DNA of 64,000 bases, from contig CP066684.1 of the NCBI GenBank assembly GCA_016432325.1, forward strand, positions 785,090-849,089. Reading direction: 5' to 3'. Each line of letters opens with the position of its first letter. Positions within the stretch are counted from its first letter, which is position 1. The position numbers and the translations under genes are program-made. The notes under the pieces were generated by a model. The model was not told the origin of the DNA. It searched no databases and saw nothing but the letters and a program-made list of their open reading frames with translations. Positions 27,603-41,482 of the stretch are shown here, in pieces. The DNA is from Candidatus Aenigmatarchaeota archaeon. GTDB lineage: Archaea; Aenigmatarchaeota; Aenigmatarchaeia; PWEA01; JACQIF01.

Positions 27603-28274
27603 GGCGTTAGAATAGGAGTTCTCGGAGGCATAGGCCCTGAAGCAACGGCGCTTTTCTACAGGAAGCTCATCCTGCGGCTGCAGAAGAGAGGCACGATACG
27701 GAGCAACGGCGACTACCCCCAGATAATCATCAACAGCATTCCGGCTCCGGAGCTGGTCGGCGAGATATCAGACGAACACCTCAAGCCGTTCGTTCGCGGA
27801 CTCAAAGAGCTCGACTCGTTTGGCGTTGACTTCATAGTGATGGCCTGCAACACGATACACCTCTTTCATGGAAAATTGCAGAAGGAAGTGCGCGCTCCCA
27901 TCCTAGACCTGCGTGTTGCCGTAAATAAGTCCCTCGAAAGACGCGGAGTGAGGAACGCCCTGATTATTGGGACGCCTAATACCGTGAAACGGAAATTATA
28001 CGGGTTTGGCGGGCGCCTTATTGAGCCTGACGCGGAAGAAACAGAACGCCTCGCGCAGGCGATTCTGAACTTCAACAGAGGAGTGGACAAGGAAGCCCAG
28101 GTCGAGATCACAAGGACAATCTGCAGACGCCATTTGGATAACGGCGCAGAAGCGGTCTTGCTGGCCTGCACGGAGTTCGCGGTGATGCTCGACGGCGAAC
28201 CGCAGACAATAAGCACAATAGACGTGTTGGTGGATGCCGTGATGGAAAAGTTCGTGTCTCCCACAAACGCTTAA
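27603..28274 (+). CDS. aspartate/glutamate racemase family protein; N-terminus lacks in-frame start (possible frameshift)
   Basis: In-frame translation from 27603 gives GVRIGVLGGIGPEAT...ACNT...ACTEF (both catalytic Cys motifs); nearest ATG (27572) is in the +1 frame and terminates at 27608-27610. Confidence 0.55.
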   Translation, partial: GVRIGVLGGIGPEATALFYRKLILRLQKRGTIRSNGDYPQIIINSIPAPELVGEISDEHLKPFVRGLKELDSFGVDFIVMACNTIHLFHGKLQKEVRAPILDLRVAVNKSLERRGVRNALIIGTPNTVKRKLYGFGGRLIEPDAEETERLAQAILNFNRGVDKEAQVEITRTICRRHLDNGAEAVLLACTEFAVMLDGEPQTISTIDVLVDAVMEKFVSPTNA

Positions 28275-28326
28275 ATACTTTCTTTGCGAATGGGGCTCAG
28301 GTGGACAAGATGGGTGAGGGCCTTTA

Positions 28327-28551
28327 TTGGTGGGTGCCTTTATCGCTTCTGGCGGTAATGGGCGGAACAGGAACAGTCGAGTAGAACAACCCTGTCTTGC
28401 GACTATTGCTCAAATCGACGACCGCGGGCGCATCTTCCTTCCAGCCATGCTCAGGAAGCGGTTGGGAATAGAAAGAGACGCGGCGTTCATGCTGATACTC
28501 GACCCGGACGGTTTCTTGGTGCTGATGCCAACCACGAGAGAGGGGAAATAG
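28327..28551 (+). CDS. AbrB/SpoVT-family DNA-binding protein (antitoxin-like)
   Basis: IDDRGRIFLPAMLRKRLGIE swapped-hairpin motif. Confidence 0.5.
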   Translation: MVGAFIASGGNGRNRNSRVEQPCLATIAQIDDRGRIFLPAMLRKRLGIERDAAFMLILDPDGFLVLMPTTREGK

Positions 28552-28552
28552 G

Positions 28553-28747
28553 ATGGGTCTTCTTGAATACATTAGGAGAGAGCTTATAGTTGGATGGCGT
28601 GTCTCGGAGCGGATGGGCGACGTTGATATGGTGTTGGCCCGTTACGGTGATTCGTGGGCTCTCGAGAAACTCACCGCGATGATGGAGGAGGAGGCCCTCA
28701 GGTACAGGCGCGAAACACGTGGGAGTTCCGAAAGCCTTAATAAATGA
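28553..28747 (+). CDS. hypothetical small protein
   Basis: 64 aa, starts 1 nt after the AbrB-like gene stop. Confidence 0.3.
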   Translation: MGLLEYIRRELIVGWRVSERMGDVDMVLARYGDSWALEKLTAMMEEEALRYRRETRGSSESLNK

Positions 28748-28760
28748 CTAAGGGAGAACA

Positions 28761-29228
28761 GTGAACATGGGTCTTGAAGTCGAGAAAAGGCTGGAAGAGA
28801 AGGGCATTTCGTACAGGCTCATAGAGCTTGAAGGGAGAGCCGTGTCTGTGAAAGATGTGCTGGCCCTTGCCAAGGAGAAGATAAAACTCGAAGAGGTGTG
28901 CAAGACTATAGTGGCGAAGGACGGCAAAGGCAACAGCTATGCATTCGTCCTCAAGGGCAACCAAAAGATAGACATGGCCAAAGCCGAACGTCTCGTAGGA
29001 GGAGGTCTCAGAATAGCGAGACCCGAGGAAGTGGAGGATGCCGCGGGCGTCGAGCCCGGCGCTGTGTGCCCGCTCCTGCTGGAGATTCCCATACTTGTTG
29101 ACAGGCGGGTCTTGGATACCGAAAGGATAAACTTCGGTTCCGGAGACCATCTGTATGGGGTGGAAATCTCGACGAAGGATTTGGAGAAGGTCATCGAGTT
29201 TCGCGTGGCGGATTTTGCGAAGGTGTGA
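28761..29228 (+). CDS. ybaK: YbaK/ProX-type aminoacyl-tRNA deacylase
   Basis: 155 aa; AFVLKGNQKIDMAKAERLVG...GAVCPL region resembles YbaK/ProX editing domain. Confidence 0.6.
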   Translation: MNMGLEVEKRLEEKGISYRLIELEGRAVSVKDVLALAKEKIKLEEVCKTIVAKDGKGNSYAFVLKGNQKIDMAKAERLVGGGLRIARPEEVEDAAGVEPGAVCPLLLEIPILVDRRVLDTERINFGSGDHLYGVEISTKDLEKVIEFRVADFAKV

Positions 29229-30598
29229 ACATGGACATGGAGAAAAGGATGGAACTGATAAAACAAGTAGGAGAGGAGATATTAACCGAAGAAGAACTAC
29301 GAGAACTTCTTGCCAAGAAACGCGATCCCATCGCCTACGACGGCTTTGAGCCTTCCGGACGCATGCACATTGCGCAGGGAATTTTGCGTGCGATTAATAT
29401 TAACAAGATGACCCGTGCCGGCTGCAAATTCAAGATGCTTGTTGCGGATTGGCACGCCTGGGCTAACAACAAGATGGGGGGCGACCTCGATGCGATTCAG
29501 ATGGTAGGCGAATACATGATAGAGGTCTGGCGAGCCAGCGGTATGGAACTGGACAACGTGGAGTTTGTCTGGGCCTCGGACCTAGCAAAGGACGACGAGT
29601 ACTGGAAAATCGTTATGAACGTTGCCCGCGCGTCGACGCTCAATCGTATTATACGCACCGCACAAATAATGGGACGATCGGAACGTGACACTCTCTCGGC
29701 CGCGCAGATACTCTATCCATGCATGCAGGCCGCGGACATCTTCTACCTGAAAGCCGACATAACACAACTCGGCATGGACCAGAGGAAGGTGAACGTTCTG
29801 GCTCGCGAGCTGGGGCCGTCGCTTGGGTTTTGGAAACCTGTTGTTGTTTCGCACCATATGCTGATGGGACTTGTGGAACCCACTACAAAACCACATATAG
29901 CTACAAGGCATCTGGATCTTCAGGGAACGTTGCCTTTGCCCAACGGAGGACAATTAAGAATAAAATCAGTTCCATCACAAAAAGGACTTTTACCAGTTTT
30001 AAACCATCCTGCCTATGGCGGCCGAGGATTTAGTGCAAAATTCTTTTACACTCCACCAAAATCAGTGACAGCGACAGAGGAAGAATTGTGGCAACGGGAA
30101 TTAACAAACCTTGATGGGATCGGGGTCAAACTTATATCTCTCGATCAAATGACAGGTGAAGCTCAGTTGGAAATAATTTCAGGACCTTCAGCAGAAGAGC
30201 GGGCGATGGCGATGAAGATGTCCAAATCGGTCCCAGACAGCGCGATATTCATGACAGACTCCGTAGACGATATTAGCGAGAAGATATCGAAAGCGTACTG
30301 TCCAGAAAAGCAGACAAACGAGAATCCGATTTTGGAATATTGCAGGCATATTATTTTCGGGTTGAACGAAGAGATGAAAATAAGCAGATCGGCCAAATGG
30401 GGTGGTAATGTAACGTATAGTTCATACGGTGAGCTTGAAAGGGACTATGCCGGCGGGAAGTTGCACCCAATGGATTTGAAAGCCGCCGTGATAAAATATT
30501 TGGTGAAAGCAGTCGAGCCGATACAAAAGCACTTCTCCAAGAACAAGAAAGCCGCCGAACTTCTGAAGTTCGTGGAAGGCGCGAAGGTGACCAGATGA
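29225..30598 (+). CDS. tyrS: tyrosyl-tRNA synthetase (archaeal class I) with large internal insertion
   Basis: GFEPSGRMHIAQG (HIGH-region equivalent), KMSKS, C-terminal KAYCPEK...LHPMDLKAAV; about 110 extra residues between HHMLMGL and KMSKS. Confidence 0.75.
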   Translation: MNMDMEKRMELIKQVGEEILTEEELRELLAKKRDPIAYDGFEPSGRMHIAQGILRAININKMTRAGCKFKMLVADWHAWANNKMGGDLDAIQMVGEYMIEVWRASGMELDNVEFVWASDLAKDDEYWKIVMNVARASTLNRIIRTAQIMGRSERDTLSAAQILYPCMQAADIFYLKADITQLGMDQRKVNVLARELGPSLGFWKPVVVSHHMLMGLVEPTTKPHIATRHLDLQGTLPLPNGGQLRIKSVPSQKGLLPVLNHPAYGGRGFSAKFFYTPPKSVTATEEELWQRELTNLDGIGVKLISLDQMTGEAQLEIISGPSAEERAMAMKMSKSVPDSAIFMTDSVDDISEKISKAYCPEKQTNENPILEYCRHIIFGLNEEMKISRSAKWGGNVTYSSYGELERDYAGGKLHPMDLKAAVIKYLVKAVEPIQKHFSKNKKAAELLKFVEGAKVTR

Positions 30599-30644: not shown

Positions 30645-31913
30645 ATGATCGACATAGAACTCCTGAGAAAAGATGCGGACGCAGTGCGCGCGAATCTCGC
30701 GCGCCGCCACAAGCCCGAGCTGCTCGAACTGCTGGACTCGGTCATCGAGATGGACGAAAAATGGAGAAAGGCGCAAGGCGAACTGGACGCTCTGCGCGCC
30801 AAGCGCAACGAGCTCACCGAACAGATACGCAAGAAGAAAGACGCGAAGCTGATAGCGCAAGCGCGCGACGCCAGCGCGCATGTGAAGGCCCTCGAAGACG
30901 AAGTGGCGTTCCTCAAGCCGAAGCTTGATTTCGAGCTCTCAAAGATTCCTGTGATGCTGCACAAAGACGTGCCGGACGGAAAAGACGCGAACGACAATCC
31001 CGTCGTCCGTACGTGGGGCAAGCAGACAAAACCGAAATTCGCGCTCGCGTCTCATGGGGAACTTATCGAGGCTCTGGGAATCGGGGACTTCGACAGGGCG
31101 TCGGAGATCGCCGGACGCGGATTCAACTACATCATGGGCGACCTGGCTCTTCTTGACAGGGCGCTGCAGGCGTATGGAATTGAATTTCTGATAAAGAACG
31201 GCTTCAGGTTCGTCGAGCCGCCGCTGATGATAAGGAAGCGCCCGATGGAAGGCACAACGGACTTCCAGGCGTTCATAGACGTCCTCTACAAGATAGAAGG
31301 GGAAGACCTGTACCTCATTCCTTCGTCCGAGAACTCGCTCGTCCCGTTCTATATGGACCAAGTCATCGATGAAGACGAACTGCCGCTAAAGATAGTCGGC
31401 GTCAGCCCGTGCTTCCGCAAGGAGATCGGTTCGCACAGCGTCGACACCAAGGGTCTCTACCGCATGCACCAGTTCAACAAGGTCGAGGAAGTCGTAATCT
31501 GCAAACCCGAAGACTCGTGGAAGTGGTTCGAGAAATTGCAGGCGATAAGCGAGGATATTTTGCAGTCGCTCAAGATACCTTACCGCGTCGTCGACATCTG
31601 CACAGGCGATATCGGCTCGAAACAGTCGCGCCAGTACGACATAGAAGCGTGGTTCCCGCGGCAGGGCAAGTACGGCGAGATCACATCCTGTTCGAACTGC
31701 GTCGACTATCAGGCGCGCGGCCTGAACATGAAGTACGGCAAGCGCGGCGGCTCGCGCGCGTTCGTGCACACTCTGAACAACACGTGCGTCGCCACTTCGC
31801 GCATAATGGTCGCGATTCTCGAGAACTTCCAGAACGAGGACGGCACAGTCGACGTTCCGAAGGTGCTGTGGCCGTACATGATGGGACGGAAGACGATTGG
31901 GAAGGCGAAGTGA
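30645..31913 (+). CDS. serS: seryl-tRNA synthetase
   Basis: N-terminal coiled-coil, class II core with conserved SPCFRKE and NCVDYQAR regions. Confidence 0.85.
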   Translation: MIDIELLRKDADAVRANLARRHKPELLELLDSVIEMDEKWRKAQGELDALRAKRNELTEQIRKKKDAKLIAQARDASAHVKALEDEVAFLKPKLDFELSKIPVMLHKDVPDGKDANDNPVVRTWGKQTKPKFALASHGELIEALGIGDFDRASEIAGRGFNYIMGDLALLDRALQAYGIEFLIKNGFRFVEPPLMIRKRPMEGTTDFQAFIDVLYKIEGEDLYLIPSSENSLVPFYMDQVIDEDELPLKIVGVSPCFRKEIGSHSVDTKGLYRMHQFNKVEEVVICKPEDSWKWFEKLQAISEDILQSLKIPYRVVDICTGDIGSKQSRQYDIEAWFPRQGKYGEITSCSNCVDYQARGLNMKYGKRGGSRAFVHTLNNTCVATSRIMVAILENFQNEDGTVDVPKVLWPYMMGRKTIGKAK

Positions 31914-40837: not shown

Positions 40838-41280
40838 GCCAGGAACACTCCGCAGGCGCGATAATCTTCAGAAACGAGAACGGTCGGCGCGTCTATCTTC
40901 TTCTCCACTACATTTCAGGCCACTGGGACTATGTGAAAGGCCACATAGAGAAGGGCGAATCCCTGGAAGAGACTGTCAAACGCGAAACGATGGAGGAGAC
41001 GGGACTGAAAGACCTGCGGTTCGTGCACGGTTTCCAGCACAAGATACAGTACTTCTTCCGCCGTGGCCGGACCACTGTAACGAAGGACGTTGTTTTCCTG
41101 TTGGCCGAGACGCAAACCGCACGCGTAGTCGTTTCAGAGGAGCACAAGGGCTACGACTGGCAGCCTTACGCACAGGCGCTGGAGAAAACCACTTTTGAAA
41201 CTGCGAAATCCGTCCTGAGAAAGGCCGAGGAGTTCTTAAACGTGTACGGGAACCAGAAAGTTCCAGACAATATTCGTTAA
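40834..41280 (+). CDS. Nudix hydrolase
   Basis: Nudix box GHIEKGESLEETVKRETMEETGL; overlaps thrC stop by 4 nt. Confidence 0.75.
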   Translation: MSQEHSAGAIIFRNENGRRVYLLLHYISGHWDYVKGHIEKGESLEETVKRETMEETGLKDLRFVHGFQHKIQYFFRRGRTTVTKDVVFLLAETQTARVVVSEEHKGYDWQPYAQALEKTTFETAKSVLRKAEEFLNVYGNQKVPDNIR

Positions 41281-41412
41281 ACCCACGTTTTAAGTTTACG
41301 GTTGCCGCGGTAAATCGTTCCACGTCAGAGAAACGTTTCCACAGGAAATATACCCATAAATTAATCGGCGATTGACGTATATAGGGTTTTAAATGGTCGT
41401 CCCCCAGTTTAG

Positions 41413-41460
41413 GCTGTTCGAATGCCGAAACATTTGAACTTTTCGAACACGGTTCGAAAA
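41413..41460 (+). promoter_or_regulatory. cluster of TTCGAA palindromic motifs upstream of small membrane protein gene
   Basis: GCTGTTCGAA, TTTTCGAACA, GGTTCGAAAA within 50 nt; the same motifs recur at 44991-45031. Confidence 0.3.
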
Positions 41461-41482
41461 TACCCACTAGGGTGAAAAAACA

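Follow-up and report, generated by a model that had tools for sequence, protein, structure and literature searches.

The tyrosyl-tRNA synthetase (TyrRS) of a Candidatus Aenigmatarchaeota archaeon carries, directly before its KMSKS catalytic loop, a block of about 100 codons that is foreign to its surroundings in synonymous-site composition. In the reading that we favor, with a probability of roughly 0.6, this block is a horizontally acquired, in-frame accessory module, which would be retained in a permissive loop of an enzyme that remains functional. A foreign coding segment of ~100 codons would have recombined in frame into a short, length-variable surface loop, which joins the last strand of the Rossmann fold (HHMLMGL) to the KMSKS-bearing helix of the archaeon's sole evident TyrRS gene. 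The segment would then be translated and persist in the finished enzyme as an additional module, probably β-rich, attached at the hinge where the catalytic domain meets the anticodon-binding domain, and the enzyme would stay a working TyrRS despite it.

The window, i.e. the whole 64-kb stretch of DNA that was analyzed, contains one evident tyrS (64 kb examined of a contig of ~875 kb). This gene occupies positions 29225–30598 of the forward strand and encodes 457 residues from a GTG at 29225, a TyrRS of the DPANN/plant-protist type. Its product is a 100% match to GenBank entry QQG39717.1, which stems from a Ca. Aenigmatarchaeota MAG and starts at the ATG at 29231 (455 residues). The profile PF00579 (tRNA-synt_1b) matches the product at E=4.5e-50 and solved TyrRS structures in the PDB do so with a best E of 3.7e-115, in alignments that cover two blocks (residues 4–218 and 330–457) and leave residues 219–329 unmatched. 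The HIGH-type signature (here HIAQ, residues 48–51, forward-strand positions 29366–29377) is intact; an alignment of 61 sequences shows H48 and Q51 as invariant and I49 and A50 as nearly so. The same applies to the KMSKS motif (residues 331–335, 30215–30229, forward strand), which can be read directly and in which K331, M332, S333, and K334 are invariant in that alignment. All residues that are invariant across the 61 homologues are kept, and the N-terminal flank of the gene has a dN/dS of 0.05 relative to the insert-less relative L108, a ratio that shows strong purifying selection. In the AlphaFold model the TyrRS core, comprising a predicted Rossmann catalytic domain and a helical anticodon-binding domain, reaches a pLDDT above 90. 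Whole-model searches with Foldseek return TyrRS structures for all matches, with TM scores of 0.91–0.93 normalized to plant and Plasmodium TyrRS. The anticodon-binding domain lies at 30230–30595 on the forward strand, as delimited by the PDB alignment of residues 330–457, and has host-like GC3 and a pLDDT above 90. By its motifs and profile matches, the product is an intact class Ic TyrRS of the archaeal/eukaryotic type; together with the predicted fold, the intact motifs suggest that the enzyme still works with the insert in place. The start of tyrS is abutted by a forward-strand gene for a YbaK/ProX-type tRNA_edit domain protein (28767–29228, in an open reading frame spanning 28761–29228; PF04073 matches the identical L109 gene), and the downstream neighbor is an open reading frame for seryl-tRNA synthetase (serS, 30645–31913, forward strand).

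The insertion lies between two conserved anchors. On the left is HHMLMGL (29852–29872, forward strand), the last strand of the Rossmann fold, recognized in the alignments and at the point where the PDB alignments end (residues 216–218). On the right is EERAMAM (30194–30214, forward strand), a conserved pre-KMSKS helix, likewise placed by alignment and corresponding to helix 323–335 of the model, at which host-like codon usage restarts. A total of 114 residues separates HHMLMGL from KMSKS. The short normal spacing expected by the sequence-only reading is borne out by 72 metagenomic (JGI) relatives sampled irrespective of loop length: 59 have 15–18 residues here, none has more than 49, and not one of the 72 genes bears an insert. 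About 17 residues are typical of relatives, whose loop lengths span 10 to 49. Homologue alignments leave residues 219–329 unpaired as well, confirming the extra block. Between GL and EERA, the Aenigmatarchaeota TyrRS has 107 residues and its closest syntenic relative, L108/P0032, has 10, which makes the net insertion 97 codons. The insertion proper comprises 104 codons (T220–A323, about 29882–30193, forward strand), as delimited by comparison with L108, composition, and the open frame; across 29848–30193, blastn finds no similarity to L108. Hence an insertion before KMSKS, as first proposed, is real, but the proposed length of ~110 codons was slightly too high, and the proposed right end, 30215, already falls on the opening base of KMSKS, so that interval takes in ~22 nt of conserved sequence (AEERAMAM).

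L108 is informative in several further respects. Its gene order (bCASP-tyrS-serS-SET-Metallophos-Topo), including the tyrS-serS synteny, is that of the Aenigmatarchaeota locus, its GC content of 55% equals the genomic GC of the insert-bearing relative, and in a tree built from the flanks only, the Aenigmatarchaeota tyrS is its sister. This comparison with a syntenic, insert-less relative places the gain of the insert in the Aenigmatarchaeota tyrS lineage.

The AT-richness initially noticed by eye (42% GC) is reproduced at 43.0% GC, a value within the bottom 0.1% when the 64 kb is cut into 321-nt windows. However, total GC discriminates weakly because the C-terminal third of tyrS also has only 47% GC, and the sharp signal lies in third codon positions. 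The insert has a GC3 of 0.29, whereas its flanks reach 0.63 and 0.61 (the latter for the C-terminal part, 30194–30595), and 47% of its third positions are A. The lowest 80-codon GC3 of the 64 kb also falls on the insert (0.26, against a median of 0.69 over 2709 gene windows). Its codon positions are ordered GC1 > GC2 > GC3, the pattern of a segment that would have evolved as coding sequence, in this same frame, in a low-GC genome. The foreign tract might also reach into the conserved codons upstream, where GC3 is ~0.45 over 20 codons, but L108 is similarly low there and this reach is not established. In its synonymous-site composition, the insert is foreign. No donor was found in the protein sets, and thus it is this composition that argues for a foreign origin.

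The insert frame contains no stop codon, against 3–9 in each of the five other frames (P = 0.001–0.002 for the absence of stops), which points to translation. The insert is divisible by three in length, and its frame runs open through both junctions. Two Logan assemblies, made from different sequencing runs (SRR12113430 and SRR12113385), reproduce the tyrS DNA of the NCBI MAG contig exactly. These observations establish, at the DNA level, a real insert with coding character, which would be kept in the mature enzyme. In the full-length AlphaFold model, it forms six strands (residues 224–231, 235–237, 243–250, 269–276, 301–307, and 312–319) with a moderate pLDDT of about 71–74, while two of its loops fall below 50. 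Structure prediction therefore yields a probably β-rich extra module in the context of the enzyme; folded alone, the insert reaches a pLDDT of 39, and with the two poorly predicted loops this makes its foldedness insecure, so that the module may or may not be folded as modeled.

Searches with the insert alone against Pfam, NCBIfam, PHROGs, and the PDB returned no genuine homologue, and neither did a word-indexed set of 5.8 billion proteins or viral contigs. Four HMMER matches among 1.84 billion representatives were tandem-repeat proteins whose scores summed weak matches, and these were rejected as spurious. To judge from these searches, the insert is an orphan sequence. One weak lead concerns GH13 glucan branching enzymes: phmmer matches the insert to GlgB 6joy at E=0.25, and a purpose-built HMM of nine GH13 sequences, targeting the β2-α2-β3 segment, scores 11.4 bits on the insert, where 20,000 shuffles reach at most 8.9, for a family that was picked post hoc. 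Pfam and NCBIfam give no GH13 match to the insert, and GlgB/GH13 is an unproven candidate donor.

The same loop has been used elsewhere. Four further archaeal TyrRS genes (L001, L002, L086, and L091), representing at least three further lineages, carry inserts of similar size at the identical position, and each is nested among insert-less relatives. As its distribution over genes shows, the insertion site has been used recurrently in archaeal TyrRS, in at least four lineages including Aenigmatarchaeota. The breakpoints are sharp and coincident, after GLxQPP and before (E)RATAMKMSKS. The GL-to-KMSKS spacing of the five insert-bearing genes is 114–129 residues, with a net gain of 97 in the Aenigmatarchaeota tyrS and about 105–112 in the other four (spacing over the 17-residue mode). 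No spacing between 50 and 113 residues was observed; the GTDB genome scan was confined to 112–131 residues, which biases the size clustering. A degenerate pattern matched mostly false positives in GTDB (out-of-frame sequence and other MGL...KMSKS spacings, found in the TyrRS of Thermoplasmata and the TrpRS of clostridia), and a stricter reverse-complement pattern was used for the final scan; applied to JGI metagenomes and IMG/VR, the stricter pattern found no insert-bearing TyrRS. The other four inserts are likewise free of stops in frame (odds below 5e-5 in L086), and insert GC3 is lower than flank GC3 in three of the five genes and higher in none. Semi-global alignment of the five inserts stays within chance for all ten pairs (z ≤1.6). 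Local scores are marginal for two pairs, the Aenigmatarchaeota insert with L086 (z=2.5, with colinear small motifs) and L001 with L002 (z=3.8), and homology among the five is not established. A profile built from them retrieved nothing, its own members included, and their alignment is meaningless. By these comparisons, the five inserts appear mutually unrelated. Upstream of the insert, the DNA of L001 and L002 is 93.7% identical (dS 0.24), downstream of it 85.8% (dS 0.54), and the inserts themselves share nothing.

Taken with these data, the proposal of a recently acquired insertion domain or embedded foreign segment, rather than an intein, is supported, because the segment is lacking both in a syntenic relative whose genomic GC is equal and in nearly all of the remaining relatives, because its synonymous-site composition is foreign to the genome, because it is an open, in-frame coding sequence, and because hallmarks of inteins, introns, and transposons are absent. 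Equivalent inserts of ordinary composition are not routine among related TyrRS genes.

Two other accounts of the inserts' origin deserve weighing, both of which we consider improbable. In one, the insert is a selfish, translated element that homes in frame to the KMSKS-proximal loop and is swapped as a cassette, akin to a non-splicing intein analogue or a Rickettsia-palindromic-element-like insert. The exact positional coincidence in at least four lineages and the sharp breakpoints would be expected of such an element, as would the GC3 pattern; the clustered sizes and the wholly different inserts between the near-identical flanks of L001 and L002 would be too, and both are poorly explained by simple random capture. 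Against this, selection on a single tolerant loop of an essential enzyme would also focus insertions at one site, and the size clustering carries the bias of the restricted spacing range noted above. Moreover, the insert has no terminal inverted or direct repeats, RNA structure, or Rfam match, none of the inserts recurs elsewhere, either within the 64 kb or within 1.1 Mb of related loci, and the inserts share no sequence able to encode or recruit a mobility function and are too short for an endonuclease gene. If this account were true, the mobile cassettes would be a new class of element: the KMSKS-proximal loop of DPANN/Thermoplasmata TyrRS would, in this doubtful case, be the target of a hitherto unnoticed kind of exchangeable, translated cassette, orphan modules of ~100 residues that have no relation to one another and enter or replace each other site-specifically. 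Such cassettes could be non-splicing selfish elements or mark a conflict-driven hotspot (a toxin, virus, or host factor acting against TyrRS).

The other account, to which we assign a similarly small chance, is one ancient insertion that was inherited vertically, with fast evolution and allelic recombination hiding the likeness among the five inserts. The low GC3 of the Aenigmatarchaeota insert would then reflect gene conversion from the insert-bearing tyrS of a low-GC relative, and L086, with a 40% GC genome and GC3 of 0.23–0.39, has the composition expected of such a donor. The shared position, similar sizes, and marginal local scores also fit, the differing dS of the two halves of L001/L002 suggests recombination at the seam, and lateral transfer and domain swapping are documented for this TyrRS clade (PMC5370408). 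However, the semi-global scores of all ten pairs are those of chance, and a single origin would need many losses, since the nearest relatives of each insert-bearing gene are insert-less; the 72 JGI relatives and the targeted JGI metagenome scan add no insert-bearing gene.

The remaining alternatives question the role or the presence of the segment in the enzyme. A large insert beside a catalytic loop could abolish activity, and since the search for further copies covered 64 kb, tyrS might be an inactive or diverging paralogue, or a pseudogene, while another gene of the genome supplies the actual TyrRS. This is very unlikely, as tyrS shares the orthologue's conserved tyrS-serS synteny, keeps every invariant residue of the family, and has an N-terminal flank under strong purifying selection; the source contig of ~875 kb is in line with DPANN, whose genomes have few paralogues.

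Less likely still is removal of the segment before the enzyme acts, as an archaeal bulge-helix-bulge (BHB) intron, a group I/II intron, or an intein, even though, as is typical of inteins and introns, it is foreign in composition and lies within an essential gene, in the midst of a catalytic region that is highly conserved. An exhaustive scan of 29850–29905 against 30160–30225 for a BHB formed by both junctions (two 3-nt bulges with a 4-bp helix between them) found none, and the intron was rejected. The RNA fold of the insert is no better than that of shuffled sequences (z=+0.5), and Rfam covariance models give no match at E ≤1 over 29600–30500. Moreover, an intron would not require the open frame, which is kept at odds of ~0.001 here and below 5e-5 in L086. 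As for an intein, the junctions read ...VEPTT|KPHI... and ...IISG|PSAEERA..., with no nucleophile at position 1. There is no N-terminal Cys/Ser, no His-Asn end, and no Asn near the C-terminal junction, and neither Pfam nor NCBIfam contains a Hint or intein family that matches at E ≤10. Direct reading and both databases thereby confirm the lack of intein boundary motifs noticed at first sight, and the intein was rejected. Known mini-inteins have ~130 residues or more, so the 104-residue insert falls below their range. A MITE, palindromic element, or IS remnant was rejected too, the insert having only chance-level repeats of 8–13 nt, none at both ends, and no tandem repeats. Least likely of all is an assembly chimera or sequencing artefact, which the MAG origin and abrupt compositional switch might suggest but which the identical tyrS in the NCBI contig and both Logan assemblies, the length divisible by three, and the open frame argue against.

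The closest functional parallel to the acquired module is the leucine-specific domain (LSD) of bacterial leucyl-tRNA synthetase (LeuRS), a works-like comparison and not one of homology. The LSD is a β-rich module of five strands and short helices that interrupts the class I catalytic domain just ahead of KMSKS and is joined to KMSKS by a β-ribbon (PMC3643597). Its sequence and length are poorly conserved, some species lack it (Mycoplasma mobile carries GKDG in its place), and it is not essential for aminoacylation or editing, but it positions the KMSKS loop and contacts the tRNA, and in the LeuRS of Escherichia coli the LSD (47 residues deleted) can experimentally be replaced by a tetrapeptide (PMC3643597). 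The KMSKS loop of TyrRS is itself a flexible inter-domain linker (PMC1934993). Like the LSD, the insert lies between the last Rossmann strand and KMSKS. The two differ in that the LSD belongs to class Ia LeuRS and is widespread and old there, whereas the insert belongs to class Ic TyrRS, occurs in a single one of the lineages sampled, and has the look of a recent import. No LeuRS chain is among the PDB hits to the insert at E ≤10, and the insert has no detectable sequence similarity to the LSD. By analogy with the LSD, whose place it takes, its most likely role would be that of a tolerated passenger, at most modulating the movement of the KMSKS loop or the binding of the acceptor end.

The composition and phylogenetic position of the insert give the appearance of an acquisition caught in progress. 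To our knowledge, known acquisitions of modules by aminoacyl-tRNA synthetases are almost all ancient. Here, a genome-reduced, symbiont-type archaeon has an orphan module of ~100 residues beside the KMSKS loop of an essential enzyme, and the recurrent inserts, together with the contrast between L001 and L002, offer a natural experiment on the permissiveness of the hinge and on how domains enter core enzymes. The TyrRS scaffold belongs to the same archaeal/eukaryotic family as the M. jannaschii TyrRS, which is widely engineered for genetic-code expansion; given this kinship, a place next to the active site where insertions are naturally tolerated could have practical value.

Several other kinds of insertion invite comparison. 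Inteins too are foreign in-frame blocks in conserved catalytic regions, at sites hit independently in different lineages, but they have splicing residues and Hint similarity, both of which the Aenigmatarchaeota insert lacks; it is in addition too small, and the TyrRS inserts are mutually unrelated. Rickettsia palindromic elements and MITEs are selfish DNA that can be translated and retained in proteins, yet they are multi-copy and palindromic, whereas this insert is single-copy in the DNA examined, without inverted repeats or RNA structure. In Plasmodium and trypanosomatids, aminoacyl-tRNA synthetases have idiosyncratic insertions, some near catalytic motifs, which are often of low complexity and host-like composition; the insert in the Aenigmatarchaeota TyrRS, in contrast, is prokaryotic, non-repetitive, and compositionally foreign. 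For TyrRS itself, Mukai et al. 2017 describe how DPANN/CPR archaeal-type TyrRS gained an N-terminal OB-fold B2 domain and had the TyrRS body exchanged through recombination of contigs that are nearly identical (PMC5370408). Non-conserved insertions were taken out there ahead of the phylogenetic analysis, and the passages retrieved contain nothing on a KMSKS-proximal insert (PMC5370408). The cases described there are terminal fusions and whole-domain swaps, unlike the internal, KMSKS-proximal insertion found in the Aenigmatarchaeota enzyme.

The window tyrS gene (29225-30598, + strand) encodes a tyrosyl-tRNA synthetase (TyrRS) of 457 aa, deposited as GenBank QQG39717.1 ('MAG: tyrosine--tRNA ligase [Candidatus Aenigmatarchaeota archaeon]'; contig of 874,869 bp), that matches Pfam tRNA-synt_1b (E=4.5e-50) and, in a PDB sequence search, solved TyrRS sequences (down to E=3.7e-115). 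All invariant residues of a 61-sequence alignment are present, HIAQ and KMSKS among them. Among solved structures it is closest to the enzymes of plants, Plasmodium and Leishmania (E ~1e-115 to 1e-98), ~60% identical in the catalytic half, with much weaker matches to Pyrococcus (1e-80) and Methanocaldococcus (1e-52) TyrRS. By sequence, the protein fits the laterally transferred DPANN/CPR/plant-protist TyrRS clade described by Mukai et al. 2017 (PMC5370408). The PDB alignments all split into residues 4-218 and 330-457, on either side of an extra block of ~100 residues (~29882-30193).

This insert lies between the HHMLMGL strand and KMSKS, which are separated by 114 residues. The short spacing that the sequence-only reading had expected of archaeal TyrRS is seen in relatives: of 72 metagenomic ones, sampled irrespective of loop length, 59 have 15-18 aa, with a tail of 20-49 aa that never reaches 100. 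The nearest relative, P0032 on locus L108 (55% GC), shares the gene order bCASP RNase, tyrS, serS, SET, Metallophos, topoisomerase, and lacks the insert (GL-QKPPSGDLPP-EERA vs GL-VEPTT...SGPSA-EERA in the window). DNA similarity between the two is lost over 29848-30193. The insertion is therefore present, but the ~110 codons first proposed shrink to a net gain of 97 over P0032. Upstream, in the interval from the bCASP RNase gene to tyrS (27837-29228), the window carries ~1.6 kb of extra genes that are absent in L108 (4716-4806), namely an Asp_Glu_race-like ORF, two small ORFs of 74 and 64 aa and, directly against the start of tyrS, a YbaK/ProX-type tRNA_edit gene, so the tyrS neighbourhood has been remodelled on both scales.

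The insert appears to be translated coding sequence. Its own frame is free of stops, whereas each of the other five contains 3-9 (P(no stop) 0.0009-0.0017 in shuffles), and its order GC1 (0.55) > GC2 (0.45) > GC3 (0.29; GC3 being GC at third codon positions) matches that of sequence which has evolved, as coding DNA in its present frame, in a low-GC genome. The tyrS DNA is base-for-base identical in two Logan assemblies from different sequencing runs, which excludes a chimeric assembly or other assembly artefact. An intein was rejected, as no Hint or other Pfam or NCBIfam family matched the insert at E<=10 and, as had been noticed earlier, its junctions show neither a Cys/Ser start nor a His-Asn end; moreover, its 104 aa are small for an intein. 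Also rejected were an archaeal bulge-helix-bulge intron, a structured RNA (fold z-score +0.5, no Rfam match) and a MITE-like element (no terminal or tandem repeats). No second copy was found in the 64-kb window or in 1.1 Mb of related loci.

The AT-richness estimated by eye (~42% GC) was measured at 43.0%, which ranks within the bottom 0.1% of equally long windows in the 64 kb. Total GC is not the decisive signal, since amino-acid composition brings the C-terminal third of tyrS down to 47% as well. What sets the insert apart is its synonymous sites: GC3 falls to 0.29, against 0.63 and 0.61 in the two flanks, 47% of third positions are A, and across all ORFs of the 64 kb the lowest 80-codon GC3 window lies in the insert (0.26; median 0.69, 0.5th percentile 0.34). 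The sole other low-GC3 ORF in the window (40979-41467, - strand; GC3 0.37, GC2 0.57) could be mis-framed, an RNA region or a further foreign piece.

Searched alone against protein databases, as had been suggested, the insert behaves as an orphan sequence: there was no homologue in a word search of 5.8 billion proteins, none credible when 1.84 billion representatives were scanned in full with HMMER, none in PHROGs or viral contigs, and none significant in PDB. Four HMMER matches were discarded, all to tandem-repeat proteins whose scores summed weak matches. The best PDB match was to GH13 glucan branching enzymes, in their beta2-alpha2-beta3 segment (E=0.25, not significant), pairing LLPVLNHPAYGGRGF...GIGVKL with LLPVMEHPYYGSWGY...GIGVIL. 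This marginal, colinear stretch (29987-30133, residues 255-303) reads LLPV.xHPxYGxxG[FY]...P...GIGV.L. A purpose-built HMM of nine GH13 sequences, a family picked post hoc, gave 11.4 bits vs a shuffle maximum of 8.9 (n=20,000), lower than the pairwise score, and Pfam and NCBIfam do not see the resemblance, which is statistically unproven.

In an AlphaFold model of the full-length protein with the 61-sequence alignment, the TyrRS core exceeds pLDDT 90. As to a separate domain, six strands are predicted in the insert (224-231, 235-237, 243-250, 269-276, 301-307, 312-319; pLDDT ~71-74), but two loops (253-267 and 283-291) fall below 50 and the insert modelled alone reaches only 39. A predicted helix (323-335) runs into KMSKS, and another (~285-299) is possible, seen only in a low-confidence model. 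The predicted order of strands, possible helix and two further strands would, speculatively, suit more than one type of small beta fold, the OB-like type among them.

Four further genes carry inserts at precisely the same position, two from the first homologue search (L001/P0097 and L002/P0075) and two from a degenerate-DNA-pattern scan of GTDB genomes restricted to spacings of 112-131 aa (L086 and L091). In the homologue list (P0002-P0062), prokaryotic relatives score below 'TyrRS 2' proteins of plants and oomycetes (650-790 aa), probably because the latter contain two tandem TyrRS-like halves, and bit-score ranking masks the insert-bearing prokaryotes. Spacing and insert vs flank GC3 are 114 aa, 0.29 vs 0.62 in the window (a Ca. 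Aenigmatarchaeota MAG, 56% GC); 126 aa, 0.97 vs 0.97 in L001 (~73% GC contig); 129 aa, 0.72 vs 0.95 in L002 (~70% GC contig); 122 aa, 0.55 vs 0.94 in L091 ('Thermoplasmata' BP_742, 72% GC); and 124 aa, 0.23 vs 0.28-0.39 in L086 (binchicken MAG, 40% GC). All five inserts are free of in-frame stops, and none has a Pfam or PHROG family. Their sequences are mutually unrelated: BLASTP finds no similarity among them, semi-global alignment scores are at chance for 10/10 pairs, and local similarity is marginal in two. When 112 genes are placed on a neighbour-joining tree by their flanks alone, every gene with an insert is nested among insert-less ones (the window with L108; L001 and L002 with L113 and L117; L086 with L082, L048 and L066; L091 nearest L112). 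A targeted scan of JGI metagenomes and IMG/VR found no further cases, so such genes are rare.

Two other explanations, a site-targeting, exchangeable coding cassette and a single ancient family of hypervariable inserts that recombination between alleles has shuffled, are kept alive by three features. Simple random capture leaves unexplained the narrow spacing range (114-129 aa, or net gains of 97 codons in the window and ~105-112 in the others over the 17-aa mode), an insert GC3 below that of the flanks in 3/5 genes and never above, and the complete replacement of the insert between L001 and L002. There, DNA similarity is zero over ~350 nt between conserved flanks, with breakpoints exactly after GLQQPP and before ERATAMKMSKS, with which those of L091 coincide. 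However, the limits set on the GTDB scan account for part of the size clustering, and we regard both explanations as unlikely. The halves of L001 (10001-11404) and L002 (1610-3022) are unequally diverged, with 93.7% DNA identity upstream of the insert (dS 0.24) and 85.8% downstream (dS 0.54), which suggests recombination at the domain seam.

We favor, at a probability of roughly 60%, a captured foreign module in a permissive loop, with at most an effect like that of the leucine-specific domain (LSD) of LeuRS. Here, coding sequence from a source of lower GC would have recombined in frame into the tyrS loop of the window lineage, and would now be translated as an extra TyrRS module. It was probably acquired after this lineage parted from L108, given that synonymous sites are saturated between them while the insert shows no amelioration. 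We are much more confident that the insert is real, foreign and translated than of this overall picture, and the earlier proposal of a recently acquired insertion domain or embedded foreign segment is supported by its absence in L108, its low GC3 and its open frame. The loop from the last Rossmann strand to the KMSKS helix, a flexible linker joining the catalytic and anticodon-binding domains, is disordered in the yeast TyrRS-tRNA complex (PMC1934993). As it already spans 10 to 49 residues in family members without a large insert, and is thus length-variable, it is among the few places in this enzyme where extra sequence can survive. The closest functional precedent is the LSD, which is beta-rich, is connected to KMSKS by a beta-ribbon, varies in sequence and length (a tetrapeptide replaces it in Mycoplasma mobile), and is dispensable for catalysis, yet aids KMSKS positioning and tRNA binding (PMC3643597). 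By this analogy the insert is most likely a tolerated passenger with an LSD-like, at most modulatory effect; little confidence attaches to any particular function. That synthetases carry lineage-specific modules is already known; the literature searched gave no account of a module at this TyrRS site that is both orphan and foreign in composition, nor of unrelated inserts recurring there.

Intermediate expansions at the same site, often Lys/Ser/Gln-rich, occur in other DPANN-type TyrRS (49, 33, 30 and 28 aa; L179, L183/L184, L007, L169 and others). Many pattern matches fall in binchicken MAGs titled 'uncultured Methanosarcinales archaeon' (L003, L016, L050, L064, L066, L069, L076, L078, L086, L098, L106, L107). 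These titles look unreliable; on the flank tree, such loci (e.g. L003, L016, L064, L066, L078, L086, L098) group with Woesearchaeota and Nanoarchaeota.
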